From positions 42,802-106,801 of the IMG/VR virus record IMGVR_UViG_3300047476_002078: DNA of 64,000 bases. One strand, 5' to 3'. How positions within the stretch are numbered: position 1 is the stretch's first letter; each line of letters starts with the position of its first letter. A program made the translations under genes and the position numbers. Positions 28,019 through 58,592 of the stretch are shown one piece after another. Source of the DNA: a virus. The notes under the pieces were generated by a model that saw only the letters and a list, made by a program, of their open reading frames with translations, did not search any database and was not told the origin of the DNA.

Positions 28019-28095
28019 TGGTGGGACTGGCAGGACTTGAACCTGCAACCCTCCGGTTATGAGCCGGACGCTCTGACCAATTGAACTACAATCCC
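28019..28095 (-). tRNA. tRNA-Met (anticodon CAU; could be Ile2 or initiator)
   Basis: GGGATTGTAGTTCAATTGGTCAGAGC...CTCATAA...GGTTCAAGTCC...CAGTCCCACCA. Confidence 0.75.
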
Positions 28096-29369: not shown

Positions 29370-29444
29370 AGGGGTATCGACAAGTGGTAAGTCAGCAGAT
29401 TTTGATTCTGCCATACGCAGGTTCGACCCCTGCTACCCCTACCA
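29370..29444 (+). tRNA. tRNA-Gln (anticodon UUG)
   Basis: AGGGGTA acceptor pairs TACCCCT, anticodon stem GCAGA/TCTGC loop TTTTGAT, TTCGACC T-loop, CCA encoded. Confidence 0.75.
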
Positions 29445-33126: not shown

Positions 33127-33945
33127 ATGTGTATGAAAATTGTTTGGGGAATGTTGAAATCATTGGAAGAATATCAAAGACTCGCAAAAAGGTTTGATTC
33201 TAAAATCCAAGAATTAACAAATGGTGAGGTTGGGGTTGAGATCAAGTTGTTTGATAAAGACCCTAGCAACCCTTTAAAAGATATTGAAAAAGGGTCGCTA
33301 GATTTATACCAAGTTACGACTCCTCATTTAAGAATGTTATTAGAGGAGCATAGTTGGTTAAAATGTTGGGAAGTCCCATTTCTGTTTACAAGTGAAGAAC
33401 ATTTGGAACGGTACATAGGTAGTGAATACACACAGCAAAAATTAAAATCTTTGGAAACAAATACAATACTCCCTCTTACTTATTCGTATGCAGGAGGTTT
33501 TTGTGGAATAGTTTCTAAGAGAAATGAAATAAATCAAAATTACGAGAATTTAAAAACTATTCCATTCACCAATTATGAATATGAAGACATGTCTGTTGAA
33601 GAGTTTATGGAAAACATCTATCAACAACTTCCTTCAAATATTTTAATGTATGAAATTCAAGAACTTTTAAAACTTAAACCTGAAAACAAATTTTTGTTAA
33701 ACATTGATGTTACTAAACATATTGTTGTAGCCAGAATATCAATGATGTCAAAAAAAGCTCTTTCAAGAATTCCATCTCAATACAGAGAGATATTTCTATC
33801 AACTTTAGTAGAATTTCTTAATGATGAGCGAAGAATAATTTACGAAAAAGCTAAGAAAAACGTCGAAGCTTTGAAAAAAGATGAGCATATTGGGTACAAT
33901 TTAGGATTAAATAAAGAAATTTTAGCTATTAAAGCCCATGAGTAA
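33127..33945 (+). CDS. hypothetical protein
   Basis: 272 aa. Confidence 0.45.
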   Translation: MCMKIVWGMLKSLEEYQRLAKRFDSKIQELTNGEVGVEIKLFDKDPSNPLKDIEKGSLDLYQVTTPHLRMLLEEHSWLKCWEVPFLFTSEEHLERYIGSEYTQQKLKSLETNTILPLTYSYAGGFCGIVSKRNEINQNYENLKTIPFTNYEYEDMSVEEFMENIYQQLPSNILMYEIQELLKLKPENKFLLNIDVTKHIVVARISMMSKKALSRIPSQYREIFLSTLVEFLNDERRIIYEKAKKNVEALKKDEHIGYNLGLNKEILAIKAHE

Positions 33946-34809
33946 TTAAAGATATAAATGTTCAAGACTTACCTCTTGAACCATTCCTTTAAAAAAGTGC
34001 TCGATAACTTTAACTGTCCAACCGTTACCAATCATTTTAAAACATTGAGTGTCTGAAACATTCATAACAATCTCTTCTGGGATTGTTTGAAGTTTCTTAC
34101 ACTCACTAACCGTCAACTTTCTAATTTTCTTTCTAAGTTCCTTTAACGGTAAACTCTGAGCTTCTTCTTTAGTTCCTTTGAACACTGAAGGCAAAGAACC
34201 TCCTCCACTATTTGCTCTCAAAGTAGGACTTTTTGTATCAAAAACTCTGCATTTATTTTCATTAAATCCGCCGTAGATATTATGAACGAGAATTTCGCCA
34301 GAGGGTAAAACGTCTTTAAGTGTAATATTTTCTGGTGTGATAAGTCCGAAAGGGATGTTTGTCCAATAAAGTCTATTTCTACTTTGAGCGGATAATACTT
34401 CCGAATTAATTTTAATAGGCTTAACTCCCATATATTGAGTGATAATATCTTCAAATTCTTTTTTCATGACCACATTTTCGAGAAGAAACCACTTAGGTTT
34501 AACAGCCTCTAATAAACGAACATAGTCAAAAAAGAGCTTACTTTGAGGGTCTTTAAAGTTTAATTGTTTACCTGCTAAAGAAAATCCAGTACAAGGTGAG
34601 CCTCCAATTAATAAATCAATTTTCGGTAACTTAGATGTATCAATTTTTGACACATCTCCTAAATGAATCATATTTGGAAAATTCTCGGAACTAACTTTTA
34701 TTGCGTGAGGGTCAATCTCAGAGGCGTAGTAGTTATCAACCTTTATATTCAAATTTTTTAGAGCGATCTGTCCACAACTCATTCCATCGAAAAGACTCAA
34801 CACGTTCAT
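33946..34809 (-). CDS. DNA (cytosine-5)-methyltransferase (paralog 1)
   Basis: Motif I LSLFDGMSCGQ, motif IV GGSPCTGFS, motif VI LLENV, motif X GNGWTVKV. Confidence 0.7.
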   Translation of the reverse strand: MNVLSLFDGMSCGQIALKNLNIKVDNYYASEIDPHAIKVSSENFPNMIHLGDVSKIDTSKLPKIDLLIGGSPCTGFSLAGKQLNFKDPQSKLFFDYVRLLEAVKPKWFLLENVVMKKEFEDIITQYMGVKPIKINSEVLSAQSRNRLYWTNIPFGLITPENITLKDVLPSGEILVHNIYGGFNENKCRVFDTKSPTLRANSGGGSLPSVFKGTKEEAQSLPLKELRKKIRKLTVSECKKLQTIPEEIVMNVSDTQCFKMIGNGWTVKVIEHFFKGMVQEVSLEHLYL

Positions 34810-36341: not shown

Positions 36342-36644
36342 ATGAACTTTGTTGAATATGGTCTTCGATACCTTGGAACTGAAGTAGAGGAAATAGTCGG
36401 AGCAAACCCGTGTGAAAATTCAGGTGCGGGATTTGAGAATGATGTTTTCTCATTGAGAGCTTTTTGTTGGTGTAGTGGAGACATAAAAGAGCATGAAGAA
36501 GGATGCCCTCCAAACTTCTTACACAAAAAAACTGGGTTCAGTGTCGAATGGTACAAATATCTTGGTAGATCAACGGAACACTCAGAAATATCACAGAAAG
36601 AATTTAGAAAAATAATTGCTGAGTGTTTAGAGTCCTTACAATGA
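36342..36644 (+). CDS. hypothetical protein
   Basis: 100 aa, Cys/His-containing. Confidence 0.35.
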   Translation: MNFVEYGLRYLGTEVEEIVGANPCENSGAGFENDVFSLRAFCWCSGDIKEHEEGCPPNFLHKKTGFSVEWYKYLGRSTEHSEISQKEFRKIIAECLESLQ

Positions 36645-37100
36645 ATGTGTCTCAGTTTGAAGTAAACGTATCAGAAGAAATAATTTTTTCTGTTATCTCT
36701 TTGTTCAATACAACCCCTTTAACTCAGATGTATTCTAATAAAGGTGGATGGTCGAGCCAGCGGTTTTATAAGCCAGAGGAAAACCACAAAGATTTATTGA
36801 ATCAAGTATTTAATAAAATATCTGAATTTTACCCAAGACCAAAACTTAGCGACTATTGGTTTAACGTAAATCAGCCTAACTCATTTCACATCTGGCACAC
36901 TCACTACCAAGTCAAATATTCAGGAGTGGTCTATCTCCAAGCTCCTCCAAAGTCCGGAGCTATTCAATTCCGAGAAGATGCTGCAATGGTTTCGACTCTT
37001 CAAATTGAGCCTCGAAAAGGTCTTTGTGTTGTTTTTCCAGCAAATTTTACCTAATTTATCCAATGAATATAGGGTGAGTTTAGTGTTCAATTTTAACTAA
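36623..37100 (+). pseudogene. 2OG-Fe(II) oxygenase-like gene interrupted by apparent +1 frameshift
   Basis: Frame 1 ends ...VVFPANFT* at 37054; +1 frame continues LPNLSNEYRVSLVFNFN* (RxS 2OG-binding-like motif) to 37100. Confidence 0.35.
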
Positions 37101-38018: not shown

Positions 38019-38957
38019 ATGAACGTGCTGTCACTATTCGATGGAATATCCTGTGGGCAAATAGCTCTTAACAGAGCAAAAATTAAATATAAAAATTATT
38101 TTGCTTCTGAAATTGATAAAAACGCTATTAATGTTACTCAGCACAACTACCCAGACACTATTCAGTTGGGGGATGTGACTAAAATTAATTTTAAATCTTT
38201 GCCAAAAATACATCTTTTGATAGGGGGTTCTCCATGTCAAGGATTCAGCATAAGTGGAAAACAACTCGCTTTCAATGACCCTCGAAGTAAACTATTTTTT
38301 GAATTTATAAAGGCTATAAAAGAACTACAGCCGAAATATTTTTTTCTTGAAAATGTTAAAATGAAAAAAGAATATGAAAATATCATAACAGAATTTTTAG
38401 GTGTAAATCCGATAGAAATAAATTCTGCCTTGGTTTCTGCTCAAAATAGAAAAAGACTTTATTGGACTAATATTCCAAACATAACTCAGCCACAAGACAA
38501 ACACATTTTTCTTCGTGATATTTTAGAAAAAGATGTAACCGATAACCTATTCGCCATTCCTGATAAATATTGGAAAGGGACTAATATCGAAAATTATATA
38601 GCTCAATCAGAAAAACCTGTAGCTTTAACTGAAAGAAGAACAGAAGAAGCAAAAAGAATTAGGAAAGAATATCAGAAAAAATATGGAAGAGACTTTTGCC
38701 CTCGAAGAGGAAAAGAATTAGTAGTCAGAAAAGACGGTAAAATGAATTGTTTGACTTCGACTTATTCAATAAAAGAACACACAGTCATTGATGAAAAAGG
38801 TTTTTACAGAAAACTTACTCCAATAGAATGTGAAAGACTACAAACAGTACCAGATAATTATACAAAAATTTTGTCTAATTCACAAAGATACAAAGCCCTT
38901 GGAAATGGTTGGACGGTAGATGTAATTGCTCACATTTTTAAAGGTATAGAAACATGA
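38019..38957 (+). CDS. DNA (cytosine-5)-methyltransferase (paralog 2)
   Basis: LSLFDGISCGQ, GGSPCQGFS, FFLENV, GNGWTVDV. Confidence 0.7.
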   Translation: MNVLSLFDGISCGQIALNRAKIKYKNYFASEIDKNAINVTQHNYPDTIQLGDVTKINFKSLPKIHLLIGGSPCQGFSISGKQLAFNDPRSKLFFEFIKAIKELQPKYFFLENVKMKKEYENIITEFLGVNPIEINSALVSAQNRKRLYWTNIPNITQPQDKHIFLRDILEKDVTDNLFAIPDKYWKGTNIENYIAQSEKPVALTERRTEEAKRIRKEYQKKYGRDFCPRRGKELVVRKDGKMNCLTSTYSIKEHTVIDEKGFYRKLTPIECERLQTVPDNYTKILSNSQRYKALGNGWTVDVIAHIFKGIET

Positions 38958-40033
38958 ACATTCTTTCTTTATTTGATGGAATGTCTTGTGGGCAGATCGC
39001 TCTTAATAGATTGGGAATCAAATACGAAAACTATTTTGCTTCTGAAATTGATATTTACGCAATTAAAGTCACTCAACATAATTATCCAAAAACAATTCAG
39101 CTTGGCGACATCAATAATTGGAGAAATTGGAACATAGATTTTTCAACTATCGGATTAGTTACAGGTGGATTCCCCTGTCAAGCATGGTCTACGGCAGGAA
39201 AGCAATTAGGTGATAAAGACGAGAGAGGAAAACTATTTTGGGTGATGCTAGAAATTATCAAGCATATAAAAAGTTTGAATCCAAATGTCATTTTTCTACT
39301 TGAAAATGTAAAGATGAAAAAAGACTTTGAAGAATACATAACATTTCATACAGAGCAAGCTCTCGGTAAAGTTGAAAAATATCTCATAAATTCTGCTCTG
39401 GTTTCAGCACAGACTCGTTGGAGATATTATTGGACAAACATTCCAAACGTGACTCAGCCGAAAGACAAGGGAATTACTTGGGGAGATGTTCGAGAACATA
39501 ATGTGGAAGCTGACAAATATTACTACACGGAAAAAGCATTACAGTGGTTAGCGAAAGAGTCACGCAAAAAAAATAAAACTCTCAAAGTTCACACAGATGA
39601 CGAAAAAATGCAAATGCTTGAGGCAAGCCATCACAAGAAATACTCAGCACAGCGTTTCTTTGGCATTGTAGAATCAGCGGAACAGGCTGTAGGAGCGATT
39701 CGTGGGCGTTACCTAGTCAATGGTAAGAGACAAGATGGAGAACAGCTTACGGCAGGTTTAACGACGCAGTATATTGAGTTTCGATATGATGGTAAAACTA
39801 ATACTCTATTTACGGTATCGAAAGACAATGTGGTAGTGCCGTTTACTTTGCCAGACCGAGTGCCTGCTTCGGAATTTTTGTTTCGCTACATTACTCCGGT
39901 TGAATGTGAAAGATTACAGACTGTGCCAGATCAATACTCTAGCGTTGTTAGTGATTCTCAGCGTTATAAGATGTTGGGTAATGGTTGGACTGTCGATGTG
40001 ATATGCCATATTCTTAGTCATGCCAATTTCTAA
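38954..40033 (+). CDS. DNA (cytosine-5)-methyltransferase (paralog 3)
   Basis: LSLFDGMSCGQ, GGFPCQAWS, FLLENV, GNGWTVDV; different variable region. Confidence 0.7.
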   Translation: MNILSLFDGMSCGQIALNRLGIKYENYFASEIDIYAIKVTQHNYPKTIQLGDINNWRNWNIDFSTIGLVTGGFPCQAWSTAGKQLGDKDERGKLFWVMLEIIKHIKSLNPNVIFLLENVKMKKDFEEYITFHTEQALGKVEKYLINSALVSAQTRWRYYWTNIPNVTQPKDKGITWGDVREHNVEADKYYYTEKALQWLAKESRKKNKTLKVHTDDEKMQMLEASHHKKYSAQRFFGIVESAEQAVGAIRGRYLVNGKRQDGEQLTAGLTTQYIEFRYDGKTNTLFTVSKDNVVVPFTLPDRVPASEFLFRYITPVECERLQTVPDQYSSVVSDSQRYKMLGNGWTVDVICHILSHANF

Positions 40034-40095
40034 TTTCCTTGTGGCTCATTGTCATGGTTTTTCATTGCCTTATTCTATTGCCAATACATCCGTAT

Positions 40096-40245
40096 GTTTT
40101 AGGGTATCTTGCGTTTTTTGATAATGCTATGTATTAATTCCTAGCGATAGCGTTTAGGGCATTTCACGATTTTTGATAACACGGTGCTTTATTTCGAGCG
40201 GTAGCGTTTAGGGTATTTAGCGATTTTTGATAATGCTATGCTTCA
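40096..40245. repeat. three imperfect ~54-bp direct repeats (iteron-like)
   Basis: GCGTTTAGGGTATTTAGCGATTTTTGATAATGCTATG unit x3 in 250-bp intergenic gap. Confidence 0.6.
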
Positions 40246-40285
40246 TATAAATATTACAAACCTGATTGAAATTTACACATAATCC

Positions 40286-40741
40286 TTGATAATTAATGGC
40301 ATGGAAACAAACAATATCGACCCCTATAAAGTTGACCCTTATTCTTTTAAGTGGGAGCTAACAAAACCTTGCTCAGATTGCCCTTTTGTGAAGTCTTCTC
40401 CTTTGCATGATGGGATAGCCTCGGATTTGCCAAAACTCGCAGAACATATTGAAAGTGGAAACTTTGTACATAGTTGTCATAAAACACACCCCGGAGCCGA
40501 TGGGTGGAATCCTGATTACAAGGGAGCTATTCAAAACTGTGCAGGACTAACTATCATGCAGATAAAAAATGAGGAACTAACGATTCCCATAGTTCGAGCG
40601 AAACTTTCGGGAGAACTCGACGAGTCAAAATTAGATAAGACTGTAGAAACTTTTAAAGACATTAAAGACATGGCTGATTACTATGTGAAGAATCATGTAA
40701 AAATACGCTTTCTTCTTAGGAATAGACATGAACGCAATTAA
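40286..40741 (+). CDS. hypothetical protein
   Basis: 151 aa, Cys/His-containing. Confidence 0.4.
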   Translation: MIINGMETNNIDPYKVDPYSFKWELTKPCSDCPFVKSSPLHDGIASDLPKLAEHIESGNFVHSCHKTHPGADGWNPDYKGAIQNCAGLTIMQIKNEELTIPIVRAKLSGELDESKLDKTVETFKDIKDMADYYVKNHVKIRFLLRNRHERN

Positions 40742-41000
40742 CAAACAAGATTTCATTGAAGCTCGATATGTGAACTTTAAAAGGAAACAAGAGTTCCTTG
40801 ATAAATTTCTCGGAAGAGGTAACTACATTCTTACTGATCTCGATGCTTACAGCGAAGATTTCGAGTGCCTCATGTCTCATGTGGTGATCTGCGATAAGTG
40901 CAACGAAAACATCTCAGAAAATATCATCATCAAAGATTCTGATTTTATCTTTCATTCAAAATGCACGACAAATTTCAGTAATGTTGTTTCACTCAATTAA
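40728..41000 (+). CDS. hypothetical Cys-containing protein
   Basis: 90 aa. Confidence 0.35.
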   Translation: MNAINKQDFIEARYVNFKRKQEFLDKFLGRGNYILTDLDAYSEDFECLMSHVVICDKCNENISENIIIKDSDFIFHSKCTTNFSNVVSLN

Positions 41001-41050
41001 TAAGTGAAAATTCCCAGATGTTAGTATCGGGAACATAAGAAGGAGATTCT

Positions 41051-41440
41051 ATGGAAACAAGACTTATTCGTAAGGGTTCGCTAGGCATCGCAGGAACTTT
41101 AAAAAATGCCGAACATCATGCTCAACCTGCTATTCCTCTAGTTAAGGCTATGATTGATGAGATTCATGATCTCACAGATTTAATTAAAGTCTGGCATCAA
41201 GGTCACAACATTCATGTGATCGAATCTCATGATGGAAGAAAAATAGCTTTCAGACCATATCGAGATGTAGAAGGAGAATGGGGAATAGAAATTTTAATTA
41301 AGATGTCTCGGCAACTTGAATACCCTCTGTTTCAAATCAAATGCCTTCGAGATGTTTTCACGGCTTCAAGTATGATTCAAAATATTTTTAGCGTGAAACA
41401 AAACAAATATCTCAGAATGGGTAACTCAGTAGAAGAATAA
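41051..41440 (+). CDS. hypothetical protein
   Basis: 129 aa with RBS AGGAGA. Confidence 0.4.
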   Translation: METRLIRKGSLGIAGTLKNAEHHAQPAIPLVKAMIDEIHDLTDLIKVWHQGHNIHVIESHDGRKIAFRPYRDVEGEWGIEILIKMSRQLEYPLFQIKCLRDVFTASSMIQNIFSVKQNKYLRMGNSVEE

Positions 41441-41446
41441 TTTTTA

Positions 41447-41469
41447 AGGCAGTAGGTGAGCCTACTGCC
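41447..41469. other. GC-rich stem-loop
   Basis: GGCAGTAGG-tgagc-CCTACTGCC, 9-bp stem, right after stop codon. Confidence 0.5.
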
Positions 41470-41490
41470 AATAATTTAAAGTCTTCTCAA

Positions 41491-41566
41491 CTACCACACA
41501 GATTCACACCTACCGCACAGATTCACACCTACCACACAGATTCACTTCTACCACACGGATTCACAT
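41491..41566. repeat. 4 x 19-bp tandem repeat CTACCACACAGATTCACAC
   Basis: Four head-to-tail copies with 1-2 substitutions, followed by ATGCCACTTGCC x2. Confidence 0.7.
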
Positions 41567-41993
41567 GCCACTTGCCACACGCCCCATGCCACTTGCCCCC
41601 ATTACCATCCCATACCCATGAAGATGCCCTTGCCAAGTGCAACGGAAGCCAAACGTACAGGTAAGCGTACAGGTCAAAATCAAGGGCAGGGAAACGGTTC
41701 AACTGGAAACTGTGAACCGTGCGGAAGTCCAAAAAGTCGGTTTTACCCTAAAGCCCTTAAACACGGTTAAACAGGCTTTACTCATCTTAAACAGATCATG
41801 GCAAACATAAGCACCGAACACCGCACGAGATAACGTGGCACGACAACCGAAAAACGGCTTTTACCCTAAAAGCAACAGGAGGTAAGTGCGGTTTTACGGT
41901 GAAATGCCAAAGATATAATGACAAAGGCTTTACGGTTAAAAATTGCCGTGATAGCGTTTTCGATGAGTGTTAAACCTATGGAGGGGATGAAGA

Positions 41994-42191
41994 GTGTACG
42001 AACTACAAAAATATAAGTGGTGGGAACTTTGGTTCTATAAATATAAGTTTGTCCGGAAATTGAGCGGTGCATTTTGGGTGCGACTTTTGGAAGATGGTTA
42101 TGATTGGGTGAAATTTGATAAAGAAAAATTTTATTCAATGAGTTTTAAGCCGACGACGAAGTTTGAGGTTGAGGACTGGACGGCGAAATGA
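41994..42191 (+). CDS. hypothetical protein (GC-richer island)
   Basis: 65 aa, W-rich. Confidence 0.35.
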   Translation: MYELQKYKWWELWFYKYKFVRKLSGAFWVRLLEDGYDWVKFDKEKFYSMSFKPTTKFEVEDWTAK

Positions 42192-42436
42192 ATTGTGCTT
42201 CGTTTTACATTTGGAAAAGTAAAAGTGGGTACGCTCTGCAAACTTCGGGCGTGGTTGGGAGCGGAGTGTGGGAAAATTTTGCGATTTTGTTACGTACTGA
42301 AGATGGTGAGTACGAGCGAATTGAAGTGAGTGAGGCGGAAGATTTAGAAAGCGTTTGCAAAAAATGGAAGCGAGTGAGTGAGATAAAAATTCCGAAAAGG
42401 AAAGAAACTTTTGAGCGTGAGGTATTAGAGATATGA
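42188..42436 (+). CDS. hypothetical protein (GC-richer island)
   Basis: 82 aa, ATGA overlap. Confidence 0.4.
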   Translation: MNCASFYIWKSKSGYALQTSGVVGSGVWENFAILLRTEDGEYERIEVSEAEDLESVCKKWKRVSEIKIPKRKETFEREVLEI

Positions 42437-42744
42437 GCTATGAATTTGGAAATTATGTAGGCGGTTATTTTCATAACAAAATTTATTCAGCGAAAGAAGA
42501 TTTAGAGCAAGAGGCAAAGTTTGAGTTACACAAAAAGCTCATTCCTTTTTTTAATATGCTCTATGAGGTAAGTTTTGCGATCTCTGCGGTGGAGGCAGGG
42601 GATTCTGGAGAAGACAGGGCGGTTTTTGCCATGTTGGATAATGTTCCACTTATGATTCAAGAGCTAGAAAATTTAGATCAAGAGCTTCAAGTTTTTCGTG
42701 AGGTAGCTAAAGAAGCTGTGAGAAGACAGTTAGAGGTTTTTTAA
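42433..42744 (+). CDS. hypothetical protein (GC-richer island)
   Basis: 103 aa. Confidence 0.4.
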   Translation: MSYEFGNYVGGYFHNKIYSAKEDLEQEAKFELHKKLIPFFNMLYEVSFAISAVEAGDSGEDRAVFAMLDNVPLMIQELENLDQELQVFREVAKEAVRRQLEVF

Positions 42745-42745
42745 T

Positions 42746-43000
42746 ATGGGAGAATTCGATAGCCTTGGTCCTACAGGTACGAGAGGTCCCGATGACAGTG
42801 GGTTAAGGGATACCTCTTCTTGTGAATCGAAAACCGAAATTTTATATTGCCCTATTAGTAATGAACTCTTTTTATTTTCTGGAGTGTATAAGCTCGACAC
42901 GAAAAAAATGGAGATGACTTTATATCTTTACTGTAGTCGTAATAAGGTAAAAAAGCGGAAGCAAAAAGTTATATCCTTAAAACATATAGGATGGCTATAA
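42746..43000 (+). CDS. hypothetical protein
   Basis: 84 aa. Confidence 0.3.
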   Translation: MGEFDSLGPTGTRGPDDSGLRDTSSCESKTEILYCPISNELFLFSGVYKLDTKKMEMTLYLYCSRNKVKKRKQKVISLKHIGWL

Positions 43001-43252
43001 AATATTGATTTTATTGAATATATGTAGCTTACTGGTAAAATAGCATATACCCTTCCTGAATTTATTTGACATTCCATATCATTTTGGTGCATACTTCGGC
43101 TCATAGGTTTGAGAACCTGCGAGTCGCACCCTTTTTTGGGTATCGTAAACTCTCCTCATCAAAAAAATAAAACCAAAACATTTTATTTTTTGAGAGCCTT
43201 GAAGCAAAGCGACTACTTCACCGAATGGGACAACTCTCAAGAAGGAAATGTT

Positions 43253-43819
43253 ATGGATTCTAAAGTTCTTGCTACAACCGCACACAAACTATTAAAGGAA
43301 ATGGGTCACGAGCTACCGCTTGGTCATGTCTATGAACTCTTTTCTAAACTCTCAGGGCACAAGTCTTGGAATGTGGCAAAGACCAAAGACGGGTTTGAGC
43401 CAGTTCTTCGTCTGATTTCCCCTAAGTCTGTTGGTGAAGGTAACTATGAAGTTAAAGTTACTCTTGAAGAAGGTTCAATCGAGTTAAAAAAGTATTACAA
43501 GGTGCAGGCTCAGTCTGAAAAAGAAGCTGAAAGTATTGTTTCTAATTACATTAAGTACCGCATTTGTGACTTTAATAGTGAAGTTGAGATTGAGCAGTTC
43601 TTGTTTGAGAATGAAGGTGTGAGAATTCTTTCCGAATTAGAGAGTGAAGATGATTACCTTTATGAAAATTGGGAAGTCATTTGGAATGATTGTGTTCCTC
43701 AAGTTCAGGCAGGCTCAACTCTTTTTTTATTTTCAGAACATGATTTAGTCAAAAATCATCTCTTGGGAAAAATGTCGAAAGATGATTTTAAGAAGCAGTT
43801 GAAAGCAAAAATGCGTTAA
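43253..43819 (+). CDS. hypothetical protein
   Basis: Start trimmed to MDSKVLATT after RBS AAGGAAA; long 5' leader upstream. Confidence 0.45.
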   Translation: MDSKVLATTAHKLLKEMGHELPLGHVYELFSKLSGHKSWNVAKTKDGFEPVLRLISPKSVGEGNYEVKVTLEEGSIELKKYYKVQAQSEKEAESIVSNYIKYRICDFNSEVEIEQFLFENEGVRILSELESEDDYLYENWEVIWNDCVPQVQAGSTLFLFSEHDLVKNHLLGKMSKDDFKKQLKAKMR

Positions 43820-43827
43820 GATTTTAA

Positions 43828-44040
43828 ATGGAGGGGGATTTATTCTCCCTCCTCATTTTGTGGGTTTTTATGCAATTACAAGCTACGGGTGCAATTTTAA
43901 GTTATTCCATTGGATTTGTTCTTATGTACACTTCTTATTTTGGAGAAATTAAAAAACTCTCCGTTAATGAAGGTTTTATCGCTTCTGGATTTTTTATTTA
44001 TCTTGGATGCTATTTATTTTTTTCTTTGAAAAAATCTTAA
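43828..44040 (+). CDS. small membrane protein
   Basis: 70 aa, two TM helices. Confidence 0.4.
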   Translation: MEGDLFSLLILWVFMQLQATGAILSYSIGFVLMYTSYFGEIKKLSVNEGFIASGFFIYLGCYLFFSLKKS

Positions 44041-44101
44041 AGTCTCTCCTTTTCTTCATAACCTTGCTAATTTGCTTATAATAAGCAGAGTTGGGGTTAT
44101 A

Positions 44102-46249
44102 ATGAAAATCGACAAGAAAACACTCTCTGTTTTACAGAAACTAGCAATTACTTATCAAGAGTATAAGAAATTGCATCCTCGTACTAAGAAGACACCCGAT
44201 GACCCTCTTTTTACTTTGGCACAAGACCCAAACAAAAAAGAGTTCAAGGTTAAGCCTAAAGATATTAAAACAGTCATGCCTTCCAAGACACCTACCAAGA
44301 GTGTTCCGCAAAAGACAGACGACCCTGTTGAAAAGTTTCGCCCAAAGCTGGCTCCAAGTGCTTATCAAAAGCAGATGGATTCAAAAGAGCTTTTGAAAAA
44401 CGCTAAGAAAATGTCTTCTGACGATATGGCATGGCATCTTCTTAATTCTAAGATTGGTATGGGTTTTGAGAGTGGGGAACTTCGAGATCAAATGAAGAGT
44501 CATTTTGGTATTGCCAATATGTATGCCATGATGATTTTAAATCCAAATATATCAAAAGAAAGCCGAGACAATATTGCTTCATGGTTGCTCGATAAAGCCG
44601 GAGTATATTTTGTTTCCAGTAAATCTCTTAAAAGATTTCTCGAAGGTTGTGCGAATAAAGGCATTATCTCAAAAGAGATTTGGGAAGAAGAAGCCAATGG
44701 GGATAGTCAGCGTAAGGAAGAGGATGAGATTGCTCAAAATTACACCGCTGACCAACTTAAAAAACTTCCTGCTAAAAAGATTCAAGAGAATTGGAATGAG
44801 ATTTGTCAAAACGAAAATCTTCCGACTTCCATGATTCAAAAGATGTTGGGTGATAAGGATGTGAAGAAAGCCCTTGAGTTCATGAAAAAGGGCTACATAG
44901 AAGATACAGGAGCCATGTCTGGTAAGATTGGTGAGCGTAAAAATAAAATTGGTAAAGCGTTAAAAATTCTTTCTCATAAAAATGTTCCTTTTGAAGCGTT
45001 ACAAGAAGTGTTTGTACCTTCTCTTAAAAAACATCTTTCAACAAATAACTACAAGGCTTACGAAGTCGCTGAATACCTTGCGAGTCATCCTGACATAAAC
45101 AAGCCAGAGAACAGTGAGCTAAAAAAGTTAGTGCTTCAGGCTTATAAGACTCAGCTTAAATACTACAAAGACGACCCAGAATATGTGGAAGACCCTTACA
45201 AGTCTCAACGTAACTTTGATGAGCTAAAGCACCCTTCCGCTCCCCCTGCTAACTTAAAGCTGTCGAAGGAAGAGTTCTTAGCAATTTGGAAGATTAGAGA
45301 TGAAGGTCCATATAAGTCTCAAAATGAAAGATGGTTTGAGCATCCTGATATGCCAGATGAGATTATCAAAGAGAGTTTGACTAAAAAAGATAATAAAGTA
45401 AAAGACCCTCTTGATAAATATCTTAGTGACTATTCGGAAGTTCGGAAACTCGCTTTTCATCAAGCTCGAAAAAGAAATCTCTTATCAGATGACGACTTAA
45501 TCAAAACTGTAAAAGCTAATTTGAATCTGCATGGCAATGACAATGAACTTATGAAAAAGTTCGCTGAACAAGCTTACACTTATGGAAAAAGCACTAATGA
45601 TATACCTCGTTATATTTCTAAGGGAAGTGATGAGGAACGCAAAGCTGTAGAAGAACAGATGAAAAAGTCAGCTTTCCATGAAGAGTTTGATTTTGAAGTC
45701 TCCGCAGTTTACAACATTGATAAAGAGCCACACAAAGATTTCGCAAAAACTTCTAAGAAACTTGGAAATGTAATGGAAGGTGTTTACCATGGTACAAGCT
45801 ATGCAAACGCCGCTGGGATTCTTTCAGATGGGGTTAGAGTTGATACCGAAGAAAGAACAGGTTCTATGTTCGGTAGGGGTTTTTATCTAGCTTCTGCTTC
45901 TTCTAAAGCTGCCCAATATGCTGGAGAAAAATTTAGTCAGCATGATGGAGATGGGGTAGTCTTTATGCTGAATGTCGCTCTTGGTAAATCCAAAGAAATG
46001 AAATATGGCAGACCCGAAGGAGATAATCTAAAATATCGTATGTTGAGTCCGGAAGAAAAACAAATGATTGAGGATTACAAAAAGAAAACAGGCAAAGACC
46101 TTGATGATAAGTGGCACTACGACCATGACTCTGTAACTGCTAAGGCAGGGCAGGCTTTAGATTATGATGAGTTTGTGGTGAAAGACCCTTCTCAGCTTCA
46201 GATTAAAAAGATTGTTATTGTGAAGAAGACACCAAAGGCAAAAGTATGA
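44102..46249 (+). CDS. PARP-like ADP-ribosyltransferase (H-Y-E class) with shared N-terminal leader module
   Basis: C-terminal VYHGTS ... GRGFYLASASS ... YDEFVVKDP (His-Tyr-Glu triad); N-terminal YQEYKKLHPRTKKTPDDPLF. Confidence 0.65.
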   Translation: MKIDKKTLSVLQKLAITYQEYKKLHPRTKKTPDDPLFTLAQDPNKKEFKVKPKDIKTVMPSKTPTKSVPQKTDDPVEKFRPKLAPSAYQKQMDSKELLKNAKKMSSDDMAWHLLNSKIGMGFESGELRDQMKSHFGIANMYAMMILNPNISKESRDNIASWLLDKAGVYFVSSKSLKRFLEGCANKGIISKEIWEEEANGDSQRKEEDEIAQNYTADQLKKLPAKKIQENWNEICQNENLPTSMIQKMLGDKDVKKALEFMKKGYIEDTGAMSGKIGERKNKIGKALKILSHKNVPFEALQEVFVPSLKKHLSTNNYKAYEVAEYLASHPDINKPENSELKKLVLQAYKTQLKYYKDDPEYVEDPYKSQRNFDELKHPSAPPANLKLSKEEFLAIWKIRDEGPYKSQNERWFEHPDMPDEIIKESLTKKDNKVKDPLDKYLSDYSEVRKLAFHQARKRNLLSDDDLIKTVKANLNLHGNDNELMKKFAEQAYTYGKSTNDIPRYISKGSDEERKAVEEQMKKSAFHEEFDFEVSAVYNIDKEPHKDFAKTSKKLGNVMEGVYHGTSYANAAGILSDGVRVDTEERTGSMFGRGFYLASASSKAAQYAGEKFSQHDGDGVVFMLNVALGKSKEMKYGRPEGDNLKYRMLSPEEKQMIEDYKKKTGKDLDDKWHYDHDSVTAKAGQALDYDEFVVKDPSQLQIKKIVIVKKTPKAKV

Positions 46250-46467
46250 ACCAAGCCGAAATAGATCGCCAAACTATTGAATTTATTGTCAATCAGACAC
46301 CCTCTGAAGAAGAGGCGAGGCAACGTCTGGATAAGTTACAAGTTTCTTTGAAAAAAGATTATTACGAATTCTTAGTGGAAGAAGCGATTAAGAATAAATT
46401 CCTTATAATTAATAAAACTAAGGAAATTCAAGCGAAGATATTAAATTTAGAATCAAAGTTAAAATAG
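46246..46467 (+). CDS. hypothetical protein
   Basis: 73 aa. Confidence 0.35.
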   Translation: MNQAEIDRQTIEFIVNQTPSEEEARQRLDKLQVSLKKDYYEFLVEEAIKNKFLIINKTKEIQAKILNLESKLK

Positions 46468-46474
46468 GGATTGT

Positions 46475-47104
46475 ATGAAAAAAATAGTTTCAAGCCTTCA
46501 TAAAATTGCGTCAGATTTAGAAAAAACTGCTTTAGATTACAATGAGTATAAAAAGCTACACCCGAACACAAAAAAGACACCTTCTGACCCGATGTTTAAA
46601 GAAAATAAACCTCAACAGGAGAGTCAGGCTCCCAAACAACAAGCTCCAAATCAACAACCAAAATCTGAGCCTAAACAAGAATCTGCTCCTAAAGTAAAGA
46701 AAACTGTTAGTGATTTTACGGATGCTGAATTAGATGAAATTGGTTTCATGCCGTCTTATAGAAAAAGTTTAAGTGATAAAGAAGTTTTGGAAGAATATAA
46801 CGCTAAAAATAAAGTTGATGAGCTTGTAAAATCTAAAAAATTGAACCTTTCTGATTATCCTGATACTGCCTTTACCTCTATTCTGCAAGATTACAAAGAA
46901 AAACAAAATAAAGGAAAATTAAGTGATGATGATTTTGAACCAGAAAACTTTTATACCGCAGTTAGAAAACATTTAAGCGATAAAGAAGTTACTCCTAAAA
47001 CTGTGAGGGAAGCGATTCGTGTTTATCACCCAGATGCAAAACTCACAAATGACCAAATAAGTTCTGTAATGAATATGTATGAAAAAAAACAAGGTTGGGG
47101 CTAA
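46475..47104 (+). CDS. hypothetical protein with shared N-terminal leader module
   Basis: N-terminal LDYNEYKKLHPNTKKTPSDPMF then Q/P/K low-complexity linker. Confidence 0.5.
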   Translation: MKKIVSSLHKIASDLEKTALDYNEYKKLHPNTKKTPSDPMFKENKPQQESQAPKQQAPNQQPKSEPKQESAPKVKKTVSDFTDAELDEIGFMPSYRKSLSDKEVLEEYNAKNKVDELVKSKKLNLSDYPDTAFTSILQDYKEKQNKGKLSDDDFEPENFYTAVRKHLSDKEVTPKTVREAIRVYHPDAKLTNDQISSVMNMYEKKQGWG

Positions 47105-47498
47105 TATGAAATTAAAAGAACAGATACAAAATTTAGAGAAAAAAATCGCTTCTAAAGCGGATGCTGCTGATATTTTTGATGAGTTTGTTAAAAACATCAT
47201 GGAGCCTCATAGAAAGAAATTTATCGAAGATCAAAACTCACCTTGGAACAAAAGCAGAGAAACTGAAGCTTCTTTAAAAGAAAAAGCAAAGTTGATTGAA
47301 GAAAGAATGAAAGAAGGTAGAGGTTTCCGTGAGGTTTGTGATGATAAAGATATTTATTTAGGAAGCGTTGATTCTAACTTCATTTATGATAAATATGTTC
47401 TAAAATCTTGGAAAGGCTCTTTTGAAGATTGGAAAGATAAAGAGATGCGTTTAGACGCTAGAAGATTTTTTGTAGATTTAAAATTAATTAAGTGGTGA
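47079..47498 (+). CDS. hypothetical protein
   Basis: 139 aa. Confidence 0.4.
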   Translation: MKKNKVGANMKLKEQIQNLEKKIASKADAADIFDEFVKNIMEPHRKKFIEDQNSPWNKSRETEASLKEKAKLIEERMKEGRGFREVCDDKDIYLGSVDSNFIYDKYVLKSWKGSFEDWKDKEMRLDARRFFVDLKLIKW

Positions 47499-48610
47499 TA
47501 GATATGAAAGATTTAATTCCGGGCGGAAAGTCAGATAAAAAACCAGACTCAGCTTTTGATTCCAAGCAACTTCAAAAAGGTATCAAGGTTGAGCGAGAGC
47601 ACACAAAAAACAAACAGCTTGCTAAAGAGATTGCAAAAGATCATTTATCTGAATTTTCTGATTACTATGATAGATTAGAAAAGATGGAAAAGTCAGCACA
47701 TTCAAAAGTTCTCTTAAAAAAAATAAAAGAGCTTGCACACAAAATTTCTGCTTCTAACGAGCATCCTATAACTAAAGGCTTAGTGCTGTCCTTTTTTGCT
47801 ACTAACATCGAGATTGGTGTTATTGACGAAGCTACGAAAAAACCTATCACTATTGCGAAAATTAATAAATCGTTTAAGAAAGATAGTCAAAGTGAAGTTA
47901 TCGAACTAGCTAAAGAGATATTTAATAATCTCGATGCTTCTGGTTACACTAAAGGCATGGACTTCAAGGCTCAACCTTACTACCGAGAATTAAATCAGGC
48001 TTATCTTAATTTCAAGAAAAGATTGTCGGAACTTTCAGAGAACCAATTAGAAAAGATGGGACTCGGTAAGCATCCATATAAATATTTGGGAGCTATGGAG
48101 TCACCTTCAAAAGAACTTCAAGAGCAAAATCCAGAAGCCTATAACAACGCACTAAGAAATTTCCCAAGATTTGATGCAGGTGGAATTGGAAGCTGTGCTA
48201 GATGTTACAACGCAATTACTATTCACCATATTATTAAATCTAGTGATGGAAAGGTATTTCCTTTAGGTAGTGAGTGCGTTTGGACATTGAATGATAATAA
48301 AATCGAGTCTGAAGTTAAAAAAGAAAAGACAAAGATTGAGAAAAGTAAAAGAGACGTAAGAAATAAGGCAAAATTATCTGATCTGGAAGACATTATAAAC
48401 AATCCTGAGTTAATCAAGAAAATGAAAAGTATGTCATACAAAATGCCAGCCGCTTTCAGTAAATGGGATGAGGGCAAAAGGCAATGGTACTTAAATACAA
48501 TTGTTGGAGATGGGACTTACTACGATTATGTTTTACACATGATTAAAATTTCTGGCACTTCAGGAAAACAAAGAATACTAAAAGAAGTTAAAAAAGATTT
48601 GGGGTTATAA
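47492..48610 (+). CDS. hypothetical protein
   Basis: 372 aa; N-terminal GGKSDKKPDSAFDSKQLQKGIKVEREHT motif. Confidence 0.45.
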   Translation: MVIDMKDLIPGGKSDKKPDSAFDSKQLQKGIKVEREHTKNKQLAKEIAKDHLSEFSDYYDRLEKMEKSAHSKVLLKKIKELAHKISASNEHPITKGLVLSFFATNIEIGVIDEATKKPITIAKINKSFKKDSQSEVIELAKEIFNNLDASGYTKGMDFKAQPYYRELNQAYLNFKKRLSELSENQLEKMGLGKHPYKYLGAMESPSKELQEQNPEAYNNALRNFPRFDAGGIGSCARCYNAITIHHIIKSSDGKVFPLGSECVWTLNDNKIESEVKKEKTKIEKSKRDVRNKAKLSDLEDIINNPELIKKMKSMSYKMPAAFSKWDEGKRQWYLNTIVGDGTYYDYVLHMIKISGTSGKQRILKEVKKDLGL

Positions 48611-48611
48611 T

Positions 48612-48914
48612 ATGAGCATTGTTAAAAAATTAAATAAAGTTGCAGAGTTTCTTGAAAAATCATCCGCAAGTGAGTTCGACAAATGGCTCGATACTTTCCT
48701 TGAAGAGAAAGGCATTGACCTTGAAGATGATTTCACAGTTCAAGGTGCTTTTTATGGTGATAACTACATGACTTATGAAGTTGTTGTAGAGCACATTAAA
48801 ATCGCTCCGAAGCACGAACAAAAGAAAATTAAAGACATGCTCGTAAAAATTGATTTTAAGAATGGGGATGTGAAACATTTTCTCCGTCATTTAGGACAGG
48901 CTTTAGCAAAATGA
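48612..48914 (+). CDS. hypothetical protein
   Basis: 100 aa. Confidence 0.4.
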   Translation: MSIVKKLNKVAEFLEKSSASEFDKWLDTFLEEKGIDLEDDFTVQGAFYGDNYMTYEVVVEHIKIAPKHEQKKIKDMLVKIDFKNGDVKHFLRHLGQALAK

Positions 48915-49102
48915 AAAATATTCTTTCTAAACTTAATGAATTAGCTACAAAAATAGAGAAAACATCTTCAAAACGTATTCCTGTTTATCTGAGTCAAGAA
49001 GAGTTGAAACTTATTAAGCAAGGGCTTGATAAAGTTCAAGGGTCAGGAGTCTTAAAACTTATCGAAAGAGTCGAAGCAGAGTTAGACACTTTCGAGGAAT
49101 AG
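48911..49102 (+). CDS. hypothetical protein
   Basis: 63 aa. Confidence 0.3.
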   Translation: MKNILSKLNELATKIEKTSSKRIPVYLSQEELKLIKQGLDKVQGSGVLKLIERVEAELDTFEE

Positions 49103-49163
49103 CTCACCGCAAAAATTGATATTGACTAAGTGTGTTCAATAGCATATTATCCGTAAAATTTTT

Positions 49164-49424
49164 ATGGAGATTAGCTTGAGCAACTGTCCTTCCTGTAAAA
49201 AGCCCTACAATGGTTTTAAAGACGACGAGTCCATGGCTGAGTATAAACAGTCAGGTCTTTGTCAAAACTGCCAAGACGAGTTTTTTGGTGCTCCTACGCT
49301 ACCAAAAGGAAATCCTACAGGTATATGCCGTGATTGCGGTAGGATGACATATCAAGAAGAAGAATTTTGTTCTCAGTCTTGCGAAACAGCTTACATGAAT
49401 TATTTAAACGAAGGTTTGAAATGA
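49164..49424 (+). CDS. zinc-ribbon protein
   Basis: CPSC ... CQNC ... CRDC ... C motifs. Confidence 0.4.
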   Translation: MEISLSNCPSCKKPYNGFKDDESMAEYKQSGLCQNCQDEFFGAPTLPKGNPTGICRDCGRMTYQEEEFCSQSCETAYMNYLNEGLK

Positions 49425-49645
49425 ATTTACGAGAACTAGAAAGAAAACTTGGTCTTCCACTTCGTTACTTGGACAGCAAAGAAAATGTAGAACTTCCAGA
49501 AACTCAAGCATTATTAAAAATGATTGATGCTATGCCTTGGCTCATAGAGGTAGCAGAAAGTGGTTTTAATCCTGAAGTTTCCCAACTGATACTACAAAGA
49601 GAAGCAATCAACATAAAGATAGAGGAAGCTAGGAATGGCAAATAA
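49367..49645 (+). CDS. hypothetical protein
   Basis: 92 aa. Confidence 0.35.
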   Translation: MFSVLRNSLHELFKRRFEMNLRELERKLGLPLRYLDSKENVELPETQALLKMIDAMPWLIEVAESGFNPEVSQLILQREAINIKIEEARNGK

Positions 49646-49862
49646 AGCAGAATTTAGAGTGATGTATCAAAAATCCGTCGGCTTTTGCGGTGAGGCTAGA
49701 ATGGAGTGTGTAAAAAGTTTCCTAACTTTTGAAGAAGCCTCTAAATTTGCCAAAGACTATGAGTTACCTAATCACATGGACGAAATATACATAATGCAAA
49801 TTTACACAAAGGATAAAAATAATGAGGACGATGGCAAATGTTCTACTGGAAAAGAGTCTTAA
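49635..49862 (+). CDS. hypothetical protein
   Basis: 75 aa. Confidence 0.35.
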   Translation: MANKAEFRVMYQKSVGFCGEARMECVKSFLTFEEASKFAKDYELPNHMDEIYIMQIYTKDKNNEDDGKCSTGKES

Positions 49863-50091
49863 CGCTCTTTTGAAAAAACTTACTCCTCAAGACTTAGCTA
49901 AATATGAGGCTTGGAAGTTAGACCAATCTCACGATCTTGAATTGGATGATAAAATGCTTGAGCTTGAAATAGATAACCATGTCGTAGCAATTGAAGAAGT
50001 TAAAGAAATGGAAAAAGATACAGACCAGTATTATCAACTTCAAGCACATATCAAAAAAATACAGAAATTAGCTAATCTTTGGGACACCTAA
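49822..50091 (+). CDS. hypothetical protein
   Basis: 89 aa. Confidence 0.35.
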   Translation: MRTMANVLLEKSLNALLKKLTPQDLAKYEAWKLDQSHDLELDDKMLELEIDNHVVAIEEVKEMEKDTDQYYQLQAHIKKIQKLANLWDT

Positions 50092-52498: not shown

Positions 52499-52575
52499 TG
52501 GCGACCGAGGAGGGACTCGAACCCCCAACCGCTGCCTTAGAAAGACAATGCTCTATCCGGTTGAGCTACTCGGTC
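52499..52575 (-). tRNA. tRNA-Arg (anticodon UCU)
   Basis: GACCGAGTAGCTCAACCGGATAGAGC...anticodon loop TTTCTAA...GGTTCGAGTCC...CTCGGTCGCCA. Confidence 0.7.
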
Positions 52576-52609: not shown

Positions 52610-53431
52610 CTATTTAAAATTTAATTGAACCTGTGAATCTGTCCCATCTTCATGAGCAAAAGTAAAATAATGCTGTTGATGCCATTTTGATTTGATTGCA
52701 TTTGACAGTCTCATTTTAACTTTCCCTGCTTCATCAAAATCAGTAAAAATGTTTTTAAGATGGCTTCCTGCTACGTGCCCTGTGCCCTTCATCTCATCTC
52801 CTGCATATTGTTCCCAGAGAGGCTTTAAATGATTATGCCCTGCGGTAGAGTGGATAACGGAATGTTGTCCATATTTTTTACCAATTGCTTCCAAGTCTTT
52901 TGGAGAAACTTTATTTGTGTGGTGAACCATGAAAACATTTTCATCATTCCCCATGAAGTGCCCTGTACCTCTGTGAAAAACAACGCCCATTTTCTGAAGT
53001 TCTTGCATGAGTTGTTGTGTACGTTTTTTATTTTCTTCGGAATCTGTTTTTTGACCATGTGGGTTTTCTGCGGTTAGTACCGTAAATGAACCGTGGTTTA
53101 AATGATGCTTGAGAAATTTTTTATCTATTGGGGCTGCTCCGGAAATAAAAGGTCGTGCGTTTTCGGAAGTCTTTACTTGCGTTCTTGTTCTCAATTCTTT
53201 GAACTTATCAAAGTCTAATTTTGTATCGGGATGATTCTGCTTAAACATATCGTAAGCAGTATTAATGCTCTCGTCTGATTTAGTCTGTGGTTTATTTTGA
53301 GAAGGTTGAGCAAAAAGAGGGTCATTTGGTCTTTTTTTAGTCAAAGGGTGTAACTTCTTATAGTCTTCATAAGTTATTTTGGCTTTTTTAAGCTTATTTT
53401 CAAGTTCAGAGATTAAGTCAGATACTTTCAT
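52610..53431 (-). CDS. His-rich hypothetical protein with shared N-terminal leader module
   Basis: N-terminal ITYEDYKKLHPLTKKRPNDPLF then Q/P/K linker; many His/Gly in C-terminal region. Confidence 0.5.
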   Translation of the reverse strand: MKVSDLISELENKLKKAKITYEDYKKLHPLTKKRPNDPLFAQPSQNKPQTKSDESINTAYDMFKQNHPDTKLDFDKFKELRTRTQVKTSENARPFISGAAPIDKKFLKHHLNHGSFTVLTAENPHGQKTDSEENKKRTQQLMQELQKMGVVFHRGTGHFMGNDENVFMVHHTNKVSPKDLEAIGKKYGQHSVIHSTAGHNHLKPLWEQYAGDEMKGTGHVAGSHLKNIFTDFDEAGKVKMRLSNAIKSKWHQQHYFTFAHEDGTDSQVQLNFK

Positions 53432-58037: not shown

Positions 58038-58592
58038 ATGATGAACTGTGAACCACAACTAAATGTAGAAGCTAAAGAAATTAGTGTTTATAGAAACGTA
58101 TTACCTGAAAATCTTTGCAAACACTTGATTGAAAAATTGGAAGGAACTGAGTTTTTTCTGCCGACAAATAAAGCAAAATTAAAAGCCGTAAATTTAGAAG
58201 ACTTTCCTGACGATATGTTTGTAGTTAAAAATTTTGTTGAAATTTGTGCTAATAAATATTTGCAGCAATTCGATAAAAAATTATCAAGCGAGCATCTTGT
58301 ATTTGATTCGATGTTTGTGGCTCGTTACAACACTGGAGATGCTTTTCCTGTTCACCACGACTTTCTTAGCGGTAATATCTTTACAGTTATGGTTGTACTT
58401 AATGATGATTATGAAGGCGGAGATTTAATATTTCCGAAACAGCATGTTTCGATAAAAGGTGGAACGGGGGATATAATTATTTTCCCTACTCTTTTTATTT
58501 ATCCTCACGAAGTTACTACGATCACCAAAGGTTGTAGAAATGCAATATTTATACGACTTGGTTACGATACTCAAAAGATGAAATATGGTTAA
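58038..58592 (+). CDS. prolyl-4-hydroxylase-like 2OG-Fe(II) oxygenase
   Basis: FPVHHDF (HxD), distal His in IYPHEV, NAIFIRL. Confidence 0.55.
   Translation: MMNCEPQLNVEAKEISVYRNVLPENLCKHLIEKLEGTEFFLPTNKAKLKAVNLEDFPDDMFVVKNFVEICANKYLQQFDKKLSSEHLVFDSMFVARYNTGDAFPVHHDFLSGNIFTVMVVLNDDYEGGDLIFPKQHVSIKGGTGDIIIFPTLFIYPHEVTTITKGCRNAIFIRLGYDTQKMKYG

Follow-up and report, generated by a model that had tools for sequence, protein, structure and literature searches.

PARP-type enzymes are best known from DNA-damage signaling in eukaryotes, and a PARP ADP-ribosyltransferase (ART) domain of this kind binds NAD+ and transfers ADP-ribose. A few jumbo phages also encode PARPs, which were suggested to act like other phage ARTs and perhaps to add polymers (Iyer et al., 2021, PMC7824862). 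The PARP-type family, termed PART and assigned to the H-Y-[EDQ] clade, is among the most frequent ART families of viruses, and fusions and gene neighborhoods were used to argue that phage ARTs are often packaged in the head (Iyer et al., 2022, PMC9503650). Here, we describe a 715-residue PARP-family ART that is encoded in a 64,000-nucleotide stretch of viral DNA (positions 42,802 to 106,801 of IMG/VR record IMGVR_UViG_3300047476_002078), all of which we refer to as the window. Members of the phage PART family (e.g., BBA65562.1) and the PARP of Bacillus phage YungSlug are likewise PARP-type H-Y-E ARTs of large tailed phages and are predicted to modify host macromolecules. The original prediction for this gene, which was made from the sequence alone, regarded H-Y-E PARP domains as rare in bacteriophages. 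Because phage PARPs are documented in the two comparative-genomic surveys cited above, in addition to the annotated YungSlug protein, this statement and the novelty that it implied are too strong.

Several described systems provide points of comparison. First, a tblastn search of GenBank phages returned only four records, all from Bacillus and Lysinibacillus myoviruses and all matching over the ART core. One of the four is YungSlug, in which the gene for an annotated 869-residue "PARP polymerase" (QKE56383.1) immediately precedes those for the portal, the procapsid protease and the major capsid protein. Comparison by hhalign gave a probability of 98.3% over the ART core, where approximately 125 residues align at approximately 35% identity, whereas the N-terminal regions are unrelated and the gene described here does not adjoin portal, protease or capsid genes in the available sequence. 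Second, the PARPs of Herpetosiphon aurantiacus and Clostridioides difficile CD160 are prokaryote-encoded H-Y-E enzymes that poly-ADP-ribosylate in vitro, combine WGR and PARP_reg domains with the ART domain and are paired with PARG (PMC8120803). Third, a possible functional analogue is the phage T4 protein Alt, an ART believed to target host proteins as infection begins. However, Alt belongs to the R-S-E clade (Alt/VIP2) and thus to another ART lineage than the H-Y-E protein described here.

The C-terminal domain of the 715-residue protein is a genuine PARP1-like ART. Pfam family PF00644 matched residues 512–707 with an E value of 4.3e-23 and 82.3 bits (gathering score 26.7), which covers positions 3–197 of the 199 in the profile, and the remaining Pfam matches were sub-threshold hits to related ART families (Exotoxin A and DUF3990). 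In a sequence search of the PDB, PARP1 (E ~1e-14), PARP2 (E ~1e-11) and PARP3 (E 4e-8) ranked on top, with tankyrases and PARP10 much weaker, and a profile built from 14 family members improved the PARP1 match to E ~2e-20. We also modeled the whole protein with AlphaFold2 using the 14-sequence alignment, which yielded a mean predicted local distance difference test (pLDDT) score of 81 and a predicted template-modeling score of 0.72. The best 50 Foldseek matches of this model in the PDB were without exception catalytic domains of PARP1 or PARP2 (E ~1e-9), with template-modeling scores of ~0.6 against ART-only chains and ~0.44 against constructs that contain the helical domain (HD) together with the ART. 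The vertebrate PARP1 and PARP2 catalytic domains (PDB 1a26, 4zzz and 1gs0) are therefore the best match in both sequence and fold. The three motifs that had been quoted for the protein, VYHGTS, GRGFYLASASS and YDEFVVKDP, are all present in the open reading frame (ORF), and their His, Tyr and Glu residues align with the catalytic positions His862, Tyr896 and Glu988 of PARP1. Together with the PARP-type profile match, this alignment bears out the predicted placement in the H-Y-E class rather than the R-S-E class. The predicted domain boundaries held less well: the ART domain comprises approximately 220–240 residues (from approximately residue 476 or 493 to 715) rather than approximately 150, and for that reason the non-catalytic part comprises approximately 475–490 residues rather than 570. 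A longer ORF could start from a TTG at 44072, but the closest homologues all begin with an MKIDKK-type sequence.

Beyond the triad, the active site retains further equivalents of PARP1 residues, which we numbered by counting along the aligned human sequence. Glu690 and Tyr688 were placed on Glu988 and Tyr986 through a second aligned segment ("maLdyDEyVvKd" versus "tsLLYNEYIVYD" in PARP1), and Gly564, Met589, Lys602 and Tyr606 correspond to Gly863, Met890, Lys903 and Tyr907. His563, Gly564, Met589, Tyr595, Lys602, Tyr606 and Glu690 are invariant in the 14 sequences, which range from 95% to approximately 30% identity. Since the catalytic residues are invariant over such divergent sequences, we rejected the possibility that the protein is an inactive pseudo-enzyme. 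The family alignment also features a "DSV..AG" strand ahead of the catalytic Glu, which we take to resemble that of PARP1, and a helical insert of approximately 40 residues (residues ~636–676), which separates the central strands from the Glu strand and differs from PARP1. The roles of the listed residues are well established for PARP1. Because most donor-site and acceptor-site residues of PARP1 are retained, the domain would be expected to modify macromolecules of the infected bacterium with ADP-ribose, possibly in the form of chains, whether short or long. Based on these sequence features, the protein is very probably an active, NAD+-consuming ART.

The region that precedes the catalytic domain bears no resemblance to the regulatory regions of other PARPs. 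In the model, two short low-confidence helices (residues 1–37) are followed by disorder (residues 39–72), an all-helical region that extends to approximately residue 475–495, and the beta/alpha fold of the ART. The ART part superposes on PARP1 and PARP2, but the helices before it do not superpose on the PARP helical domain, and we therefore rejected their assignment as an HD. Consistent with the earlier claim that the N-terminus is unrelated to known PARP regulatory domains, Pfam detected no WGR, zinc-finger, BRCT or PARP_reg (HD) domain in the 715-residue protein. These absences separate it from the PARP1 and PARP2 proteins and, as regards the WGR domain and HD ahead of the ART, from the DNA-dependent PARPs in general (PARP1–3 and the bacterial WGR-PARPs described above). 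A search of a viral structure library found nothing significant, with a phage "Leucine rich repeat variant" (LRV) protein on top (E 0.06), and the homologues show sub-threshold LRV matches in Pfam. Five spaced helix-cap motifs can be read from the sequence (LNPNISK, NENLPTS, HKNVPFE, HPDINKPEN and EHPDMPDE). Taken together, these results identify the N-terminal body as an alpha-solenoid that belongs to none of the known families in particular. Such a body, approximately 400 residues long, fits a role in binding or target selection, and the solenoid most likely would select the target through protein-protein contact.

These features also bear on whether the enzyme could be a PARP1-like signaling enzyme that responds to damage or replication of the phage genome upon activation by DNA ends. 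Such a role would be in keeping with an ART domain that is closest in sequence to PARP1 and PARP2, and with a window that encodes an ATP-dependent DNA ligase, a 5'-3' exonuclease, a pyrimidine-dimer glycosylase-like protein and an SNF2 helicase. However, WGR, zinc-finger, BRCT and PARP_reg domains are missing, the N-terminal domain resembles generic alpha-solenoids only, and the proteins of the window include no recognizable eraser of the PARG, macro or ARH type, which together make this role exceedingly improbable. Because it has neither a WGR domain nor an HD, the enzyme is probably not gated by DNA breaks or autoinhibited by an HD.

The N-terminal 37 residues of the protein comprise a leader that, as the original prediction had noticed, is common to two other proteins of the window. 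When the window was searched with a hidden Markov model (HMM) of the leader, three ORFs and no more matched (those starting at 44102, 46475 and, on the minus strand, 53431), with E values of 1e-21 to 3e-23, and the next best match had an E value above 1. One of the two additional proteins (209 residues) belongs to no recognized family, and the other (273 residues) carries a DUF3293 domain and shows a sub-threshold likeness to S-adenosylmethionine lyases (PF23780, E 2.4e-4). Our literature search found no paper mentioning DUF3293. The 273-residue protein also contains a second, degenerate partial leader motif (MFKQNHPDTKLDFDKF) approximately 25 residues after the first (53201–53233, minus strand), and due to this degenerate copy a PDB sequence search of the protein returned only spurious myoglobin matches. 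The gene for the 209-residue protein lies in a tightly overlapping gene string with a gene for a 372-residue protein (47492–48610, plus strand; two genes downstream of the PARP gene) with an N-terminal DUF5661 domain (E 3e-11) and a remainder that matches no family. In a protein from another metagenome (P0006, 631 residues), the leader is present at 56% identity over approximately 60 residues, and the protein also has a zincin motif (HEWGH..D) as well as an LPD1 domain.

The pattern of substitutions within the leader shows that the peptide itself is maintained. Comparisons among the paralogues across the 20-codon core gave synonymous/non-synonymous counts of 10/4, 6/5 and 8/6, and the DNA upstream of the three leader genes in the window is not alike. 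Because the core carries many synonymous changes while the upstream DNA is not conserved, the leader peptide itself is under purifying selection. The same observations led us to reject the idea that the leader is a recently copied DNA cassette. We also rejected a secretion signal, as the leader reads as hydrophilic and charged.

The leader is also exchangeable among homologues of the PARP. A word-indexed search of 5.8 billion clustered proteins found only five full-length relatives, all metagenomic and 95–46% identical, and an exhaustive HMMER search of 1.84 billion representatives found 666 proteins with E ≤ 0.001, most of which match the PARP-domain region alone. Only eleven of the 666 reach E ≤ 1e-30, and these make up the family (660–825 residues, plus fragments). 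The leader is present on family members P0007 and P0008, whereas in P0009–P0014 the same solenoid and ART core follows a different, unannotated N-terminal module of 115–225 residues, as expected for an exchangeable targeting module. The contigs that encode homologues appear phage-like: their genes include one for a ligase, one for an endolysin of the amidase type and one for an fn3 protein that weakly matches tail proteins. When the family alignment was used as the query, the word-indexed protein search brought in no further members, an IMG/VR scan yielded no confirmed locus, PHROGs contained no family for the PARP, the 209-residue, the 273-residue or the adjacent 73-residue protein, and NCBIfam and PADLOC gave no meaningful match, the only PADLOC hit of the PARP having an E value of 0.0055. 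Two observations stand apart from this survey. On a 565-bp ENA contig, a 66-residue protein (P0019) joins leader residues 1–51, with one substitution, in frame to the last 15 residues of the PARP, which corresponds to 44102–44254 of the window joined to 46202–46249 and suggests that some members of the population can do without the PARP gene, unless the contig is an assembly artifact. In addition, contig L001, which carries a PARP homologue, encodes a deoxyhypusine synthase-like protein (PF01916, 832–1800) beside DUF3846 and an ATP-dependent ligase.

Based on these findings, we consider it probable that the gene encodes an active, host-directed phage PARP-type ART with a leader that serves as a sorting signal, possibly for loading into the capsid. 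The components of this account differ in strength. A role as an effector directed at the host is the better bet, and a function of the leader as a virion-packaging signal is a tentative proposal that falls short of even chances. Because the leader is exchangeable and is shared by unrelated catalytic modules, it is probably a common sorting signal, which would direct a set of probable effectors (the PARP, the 209-residue protein, the DUF3293/S-adenosylmethionine lyase-like protein and, in a relative, the zincin/LPD1 protein) to a common destination. T4 Alt has an N-terminal segment that may serve as a sorting signal, and the same is possible for the leader. Our preferred guess is that the leader would load these proteins into the capsid and that, like T4 Alt, they would reach the host cell together with the phage DNA. 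The packaging and injection of Alt are experimentally established, whereas here both are inferred. Zincin and LPD1 features have been described for phage-type polyvalent proteins, which are predicted to be delivered with DNA by virion or conjugation (Iyer et al., 2017). Capsid loading is the most economical guess because of this link and because another phage PARP lies in a head-gene context.

The comparison with polyvalent proteins (ART-PolyVal PF18760 and LPD1 PF18796) can be extended further. The leader is common to a zincin and LPD1 protein, and the set of leader-tagged single-domain proteins resembles a "split" version of a polyvalent protein. In contrast to polyvalent proteins, each polypeptide here carries one catalytic domain, the ART is of the PARP type, and LPD1 resides on a separate leader protein; matches to ART-PolyVal were confined to homologues and stayed under the cut-off there (E 1e-4 to 0.03). 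In its boldest form, which we regard as rather unlikely, the proposal would hold that the leader is an undescribed cargo-sorting signal in a lineage of uncultivated large phages, that separate enzymatic effectors (the PARP, the zincin/LPD1 protein, the DUF3293/S-adenosylmethionine lyase-like protein and others) are loaded into the capsid and co-injected with the DNA as a "split polyvalent protein" system, and that the PARP makes poly(ADP-ribose) on bacterial targets. If true, it would be the first virion-delivered PARylating enzyme.

Several observations weigh against the account of an active, host-directed and possibly packaged enzyme. In all 14 sequences, the position of PARP1 Ser904, which helps hold the amide of nicotinamide, is occupied by Ala (Ala603), which distinguishes the family from PARP1, PARP2 and the YungSlug protein, the last of which keeps the Ser and has no such leader. 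Position 688, which corresponds to PARP1 Tyr986, varies among Tyr, His and Phe, and polymer formation cannot be inferred because of this variation. Chain elongation by PARP1 needs the catalytic Glu, and H-Y-E enzymes such as PARP3 are mono-transferases. Polymer formation is therefore no more than a possibility, which Ala603 and the variability of position 688 make more doubtful still. The leader was not found outside this phage lineage: in IMG/VR, no locus could be confirmed from a scan with the leader alignment, scanning JGI metagenomes gave only fragments of the same phage population (L005–L009), and the word-indexed protein search gave only three short fragments. Nor does the leader show likeness to any described capsid-targeting sequence or a cleavage site that could be called. 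No head, tail, terminase or protease gene was recognized within the window, and our literature search found no experimental study or activity data for any phage PARP. Finally, the gene lies among small ORFs and methylases and has a sigma-70-like promoter match, a setting that would suit an early gene with an unpackaged product just as well.

This last point corresponds to an alternative in which the same enzyme remains unpackaged and acts as an early or middle host-takeover ART like ModA and ModB of T4, with the leader serving, for instance, in docking to a hub protein common to these proteins, from host or phage, in localization or in turnover. The genes that surround the PARP gene (small ORFs and genes for methylases and nucleic-acid enzymes, but none recognized as structural in the 64 kb), the TTCATA-16-TATAAT match 20 nucleotides upstream of its start, and the finding by Pfam that it is fused to neither MuF nor portal would all be consistent with such a gene. 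However, the promoter match is not statistically enriched, other phage PARPs adjoin head genes, and the leader is also found on a zincin and LPD1 module of a kind tied to virion or conjugation delivery (Iyer et al., 2017). We therefore judge the unpackaged alternative to be unlikely, albeit the strongest of the competing accounts.

The PARP gene is accompanied by a small partner gene, a 73-residue helical ORF with a start that overlaps the PARP stop (ATGA). Homologues of this ORF follow the PARP gene in contigs L001 and L002/L003. In L011/L012, which encode leaderless PARP variants, the homologue (HMM E 1e-8) lies one gene further on, with a 180-residue ORF between. The 73-residue ORF is thus kept beside PARP homologues of just 30–48% identity, leaderless variants included. 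A stand-alone paralogue near the left end of the window was detected by an HMM of the family, while BLASTP of the 73-residue ORF against it found nothing. The 77 bases ahead of the paralogue, back to the start of the window and the limit of what is visible upstream, read as AT-rich non-coding DNA. The 73-residue protein had no match in Pfam, PHROG, NCBIfam or PADLOC, including the antitoxin, macro, NADAR and ARH families.

The overlap of the two genes and their conserved proximity across divergent and leaderless homologues raise the possibility of a toxin-immunity or superinfection-exclusion pair, in which the PARP would deplete NAD+ or ADP-ribosylate targets as a toxin and the 73-residue protein would be its inhibitor. 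However, the small protein resembles none of the antitoxin, macro, NADAR or ARH families, neither it nor the PARP has a significant PADLOC match, the pair is split by the 180-residue ORF in L011/L012, and a paralogue stands alone next to apparently non-coding DNA (77 bases visible). This pairing is accordingly a highly unlikely explanation, and a host-directed ART with a sorting leader remains the reading we prefer.

Table 1. Features of the PARP locus and related elements of the window, with coordinates given as positions in the window.
Feature	Position	Strand	Basis or comment
715-residue PARP-family ART gene (leader, linker, alpha-solenoid and ART)	44102–46249	+	ORF list, PF00644, full-length homologues P0001–P0005 and P0007–P0014; ATG at 44102, stop codon 46247–46249
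N-terminal leader, residues 1–37, core (L)AITYxEYKKLHPxTKKTPxDPLF	44102–44212	+	Common to two other window ORFs and LPD1/zincin protein P0006
Disordered K/P/T-rich linker, residues 38–72	44213–44317	+	pLDDT ~30 (residues 39–72); length and sequence vary between homologues
All-helical repeat (LRV/HEAT/TPR-like) domain, residues 73–475, with recurring N-P-N/x-P helix-cap motifs	44318–45526	+	
PARP-type ART catalytic domain, residues ~476–715	45527–46246	+	Pfam match (45635–46222), PDB sequence and fold matches
VYHGTS, residues 561–566	45782–45799	+	
His563 codon (PARP1 His862)	45788–45790	+	Alignments; invariant in 14 sequences
GRGFYLASASS, residues 591–601	45872–45904	+	
Tyr595 codon (PARP1 Tyr896)	45884–45886	+	Alignments; invariant in 14 sequences
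YDEFVVKDP, residues 688–696	46163–46189	+	
Glu690 codon (PARP1 Glu988, catalytic Glu)	46169–46171	+	Family profile alignment; invariant in 14 sequences
73-residue helical ORF	46246–46467	+	Sequence; conserved neighbor of the PARP family
Stand-alone paralogue of the 73-residue ORF	78–290	+	HMM from three PARP-linked small ORFs, E 2.2e-9
209-residue protein with the same leader	46475–47104	+	Leader HMM E 3.5e-22; no Pfam, PHROG, NCBIfam or PADLOC family
273-residue protein with the same leader and DUF3293	52610–53431	-	Leader HMM E 1.3e-21; PF11697 E 3.1e-12
Sigma-70-like promoter match upstream of the PARP start	44055–44082	+	Site count in region not above shuffle expectation
Terminator-like hairpin after upstream ORF 43109–43819	43830–43852	+	9-bp stem with 6 GC pairs, then T-rich tail

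The window as a whole has a GC content of approximately 33% and contains approximately 130 mostly small, tightly packed ORFs. In addition to the DNA repair and replication genes mentioned above, it encodes HNH endonucleases and three C5 cytosine methylases. The closest relatives of the SNF2 helicase belong to a 308-kb Tunturiibacter phage and a 485-kb uncultured phage, and it is a reasonable reading that the window is part of a large, possibly jumbo, phage. A megablast search with positions 40000–50000 against GenBank phages found nothing, which indicates that GenBank holds no near-identical phage. Five tRNA genes are scattered across the window: Gly-TCC (13721–13796), Leu-TAA (27908–27994), Met-CAT (28019–28095), Gln-TTG (29370–29444) and Arg-TCT (52499–52575). 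The three C5 methylase genes are clustered within 6 kb (33946–34809, minus strand; 38019–38957 and 38954–40033, plus strand), two of them overlapping head to tail, which points to heavy self-methylation as an anti-restriction strategy.

A NADAR protein (10792–11358, minus strand; PF08719, E 5.5e-28; TIGR02464, E 2.8e-32) is encoded 33 kb from the PARP gene, to which we found no link, and weakly matches a model termed "NADAR family anti-phage protein." Because NADARs take ADP-ribose off guanine in DNA, this protein could act in counter-defense against DarT-type systems. An RRM-type RNA-binding protein (12246–12695, minus strand; PF00076, E 4.6e-24) with an Arg/Gly/Asp-rich tail is an unusual phage gene product that may be host-derived. 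Genes for host-like proteins include HSP20 (8097–8447, minus strand), MgtC (9649–10107, plus strand), an SPFH/Band 7 protein (31370–32668, plus strand), a DctP-type solute-binding protein (33127–33945, plus strand) and an NAD-dependent sugar epimerase/dehydratase (20100–21020, plus strand), and there are several 2OG-Fe(II) oxygenases (6260–6916, 36623–37054, 58038–58592 and 61402–61986). Toward the right end lie nucleotide-related genes, which encode a YspA/cpYpsA-type SLOG protein (62699–63031, plus strand; PF10686, E 1e-14), a WDGH-domain protein (62342–62683, minus strand; E 2.4e-20) and the C-terminal part of an IMPDH/GMP reductase (63434–63919, minus strand; E 4.6e-55).

What is new in this locus is the arrangement of leader, linker, alpha-solenoid and PARP-type ART, together with N-terminal modules of two kinds that can replace each other, a leader that other effector-like proteins also carry and a conserved small partner gene. 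Comparative-genomic surveys have listed phage PARPs, and an evolutionary relationship to the PARPs of eukaryotic viruses and eukaryotes has been proposed for them. The family described here offers a compact example, with a conserved active site as predicted from sequence, no autoinhibitory domain and a separate domain for target recognition, which suits it to biochemical work on substrates and polymers. The shared leader is a candidate handle for effectors that are co-delivered or co-localized in uncultivated large phages, and should it prove to direct packaging, it could also serve to bring foreign proteins into capsids.

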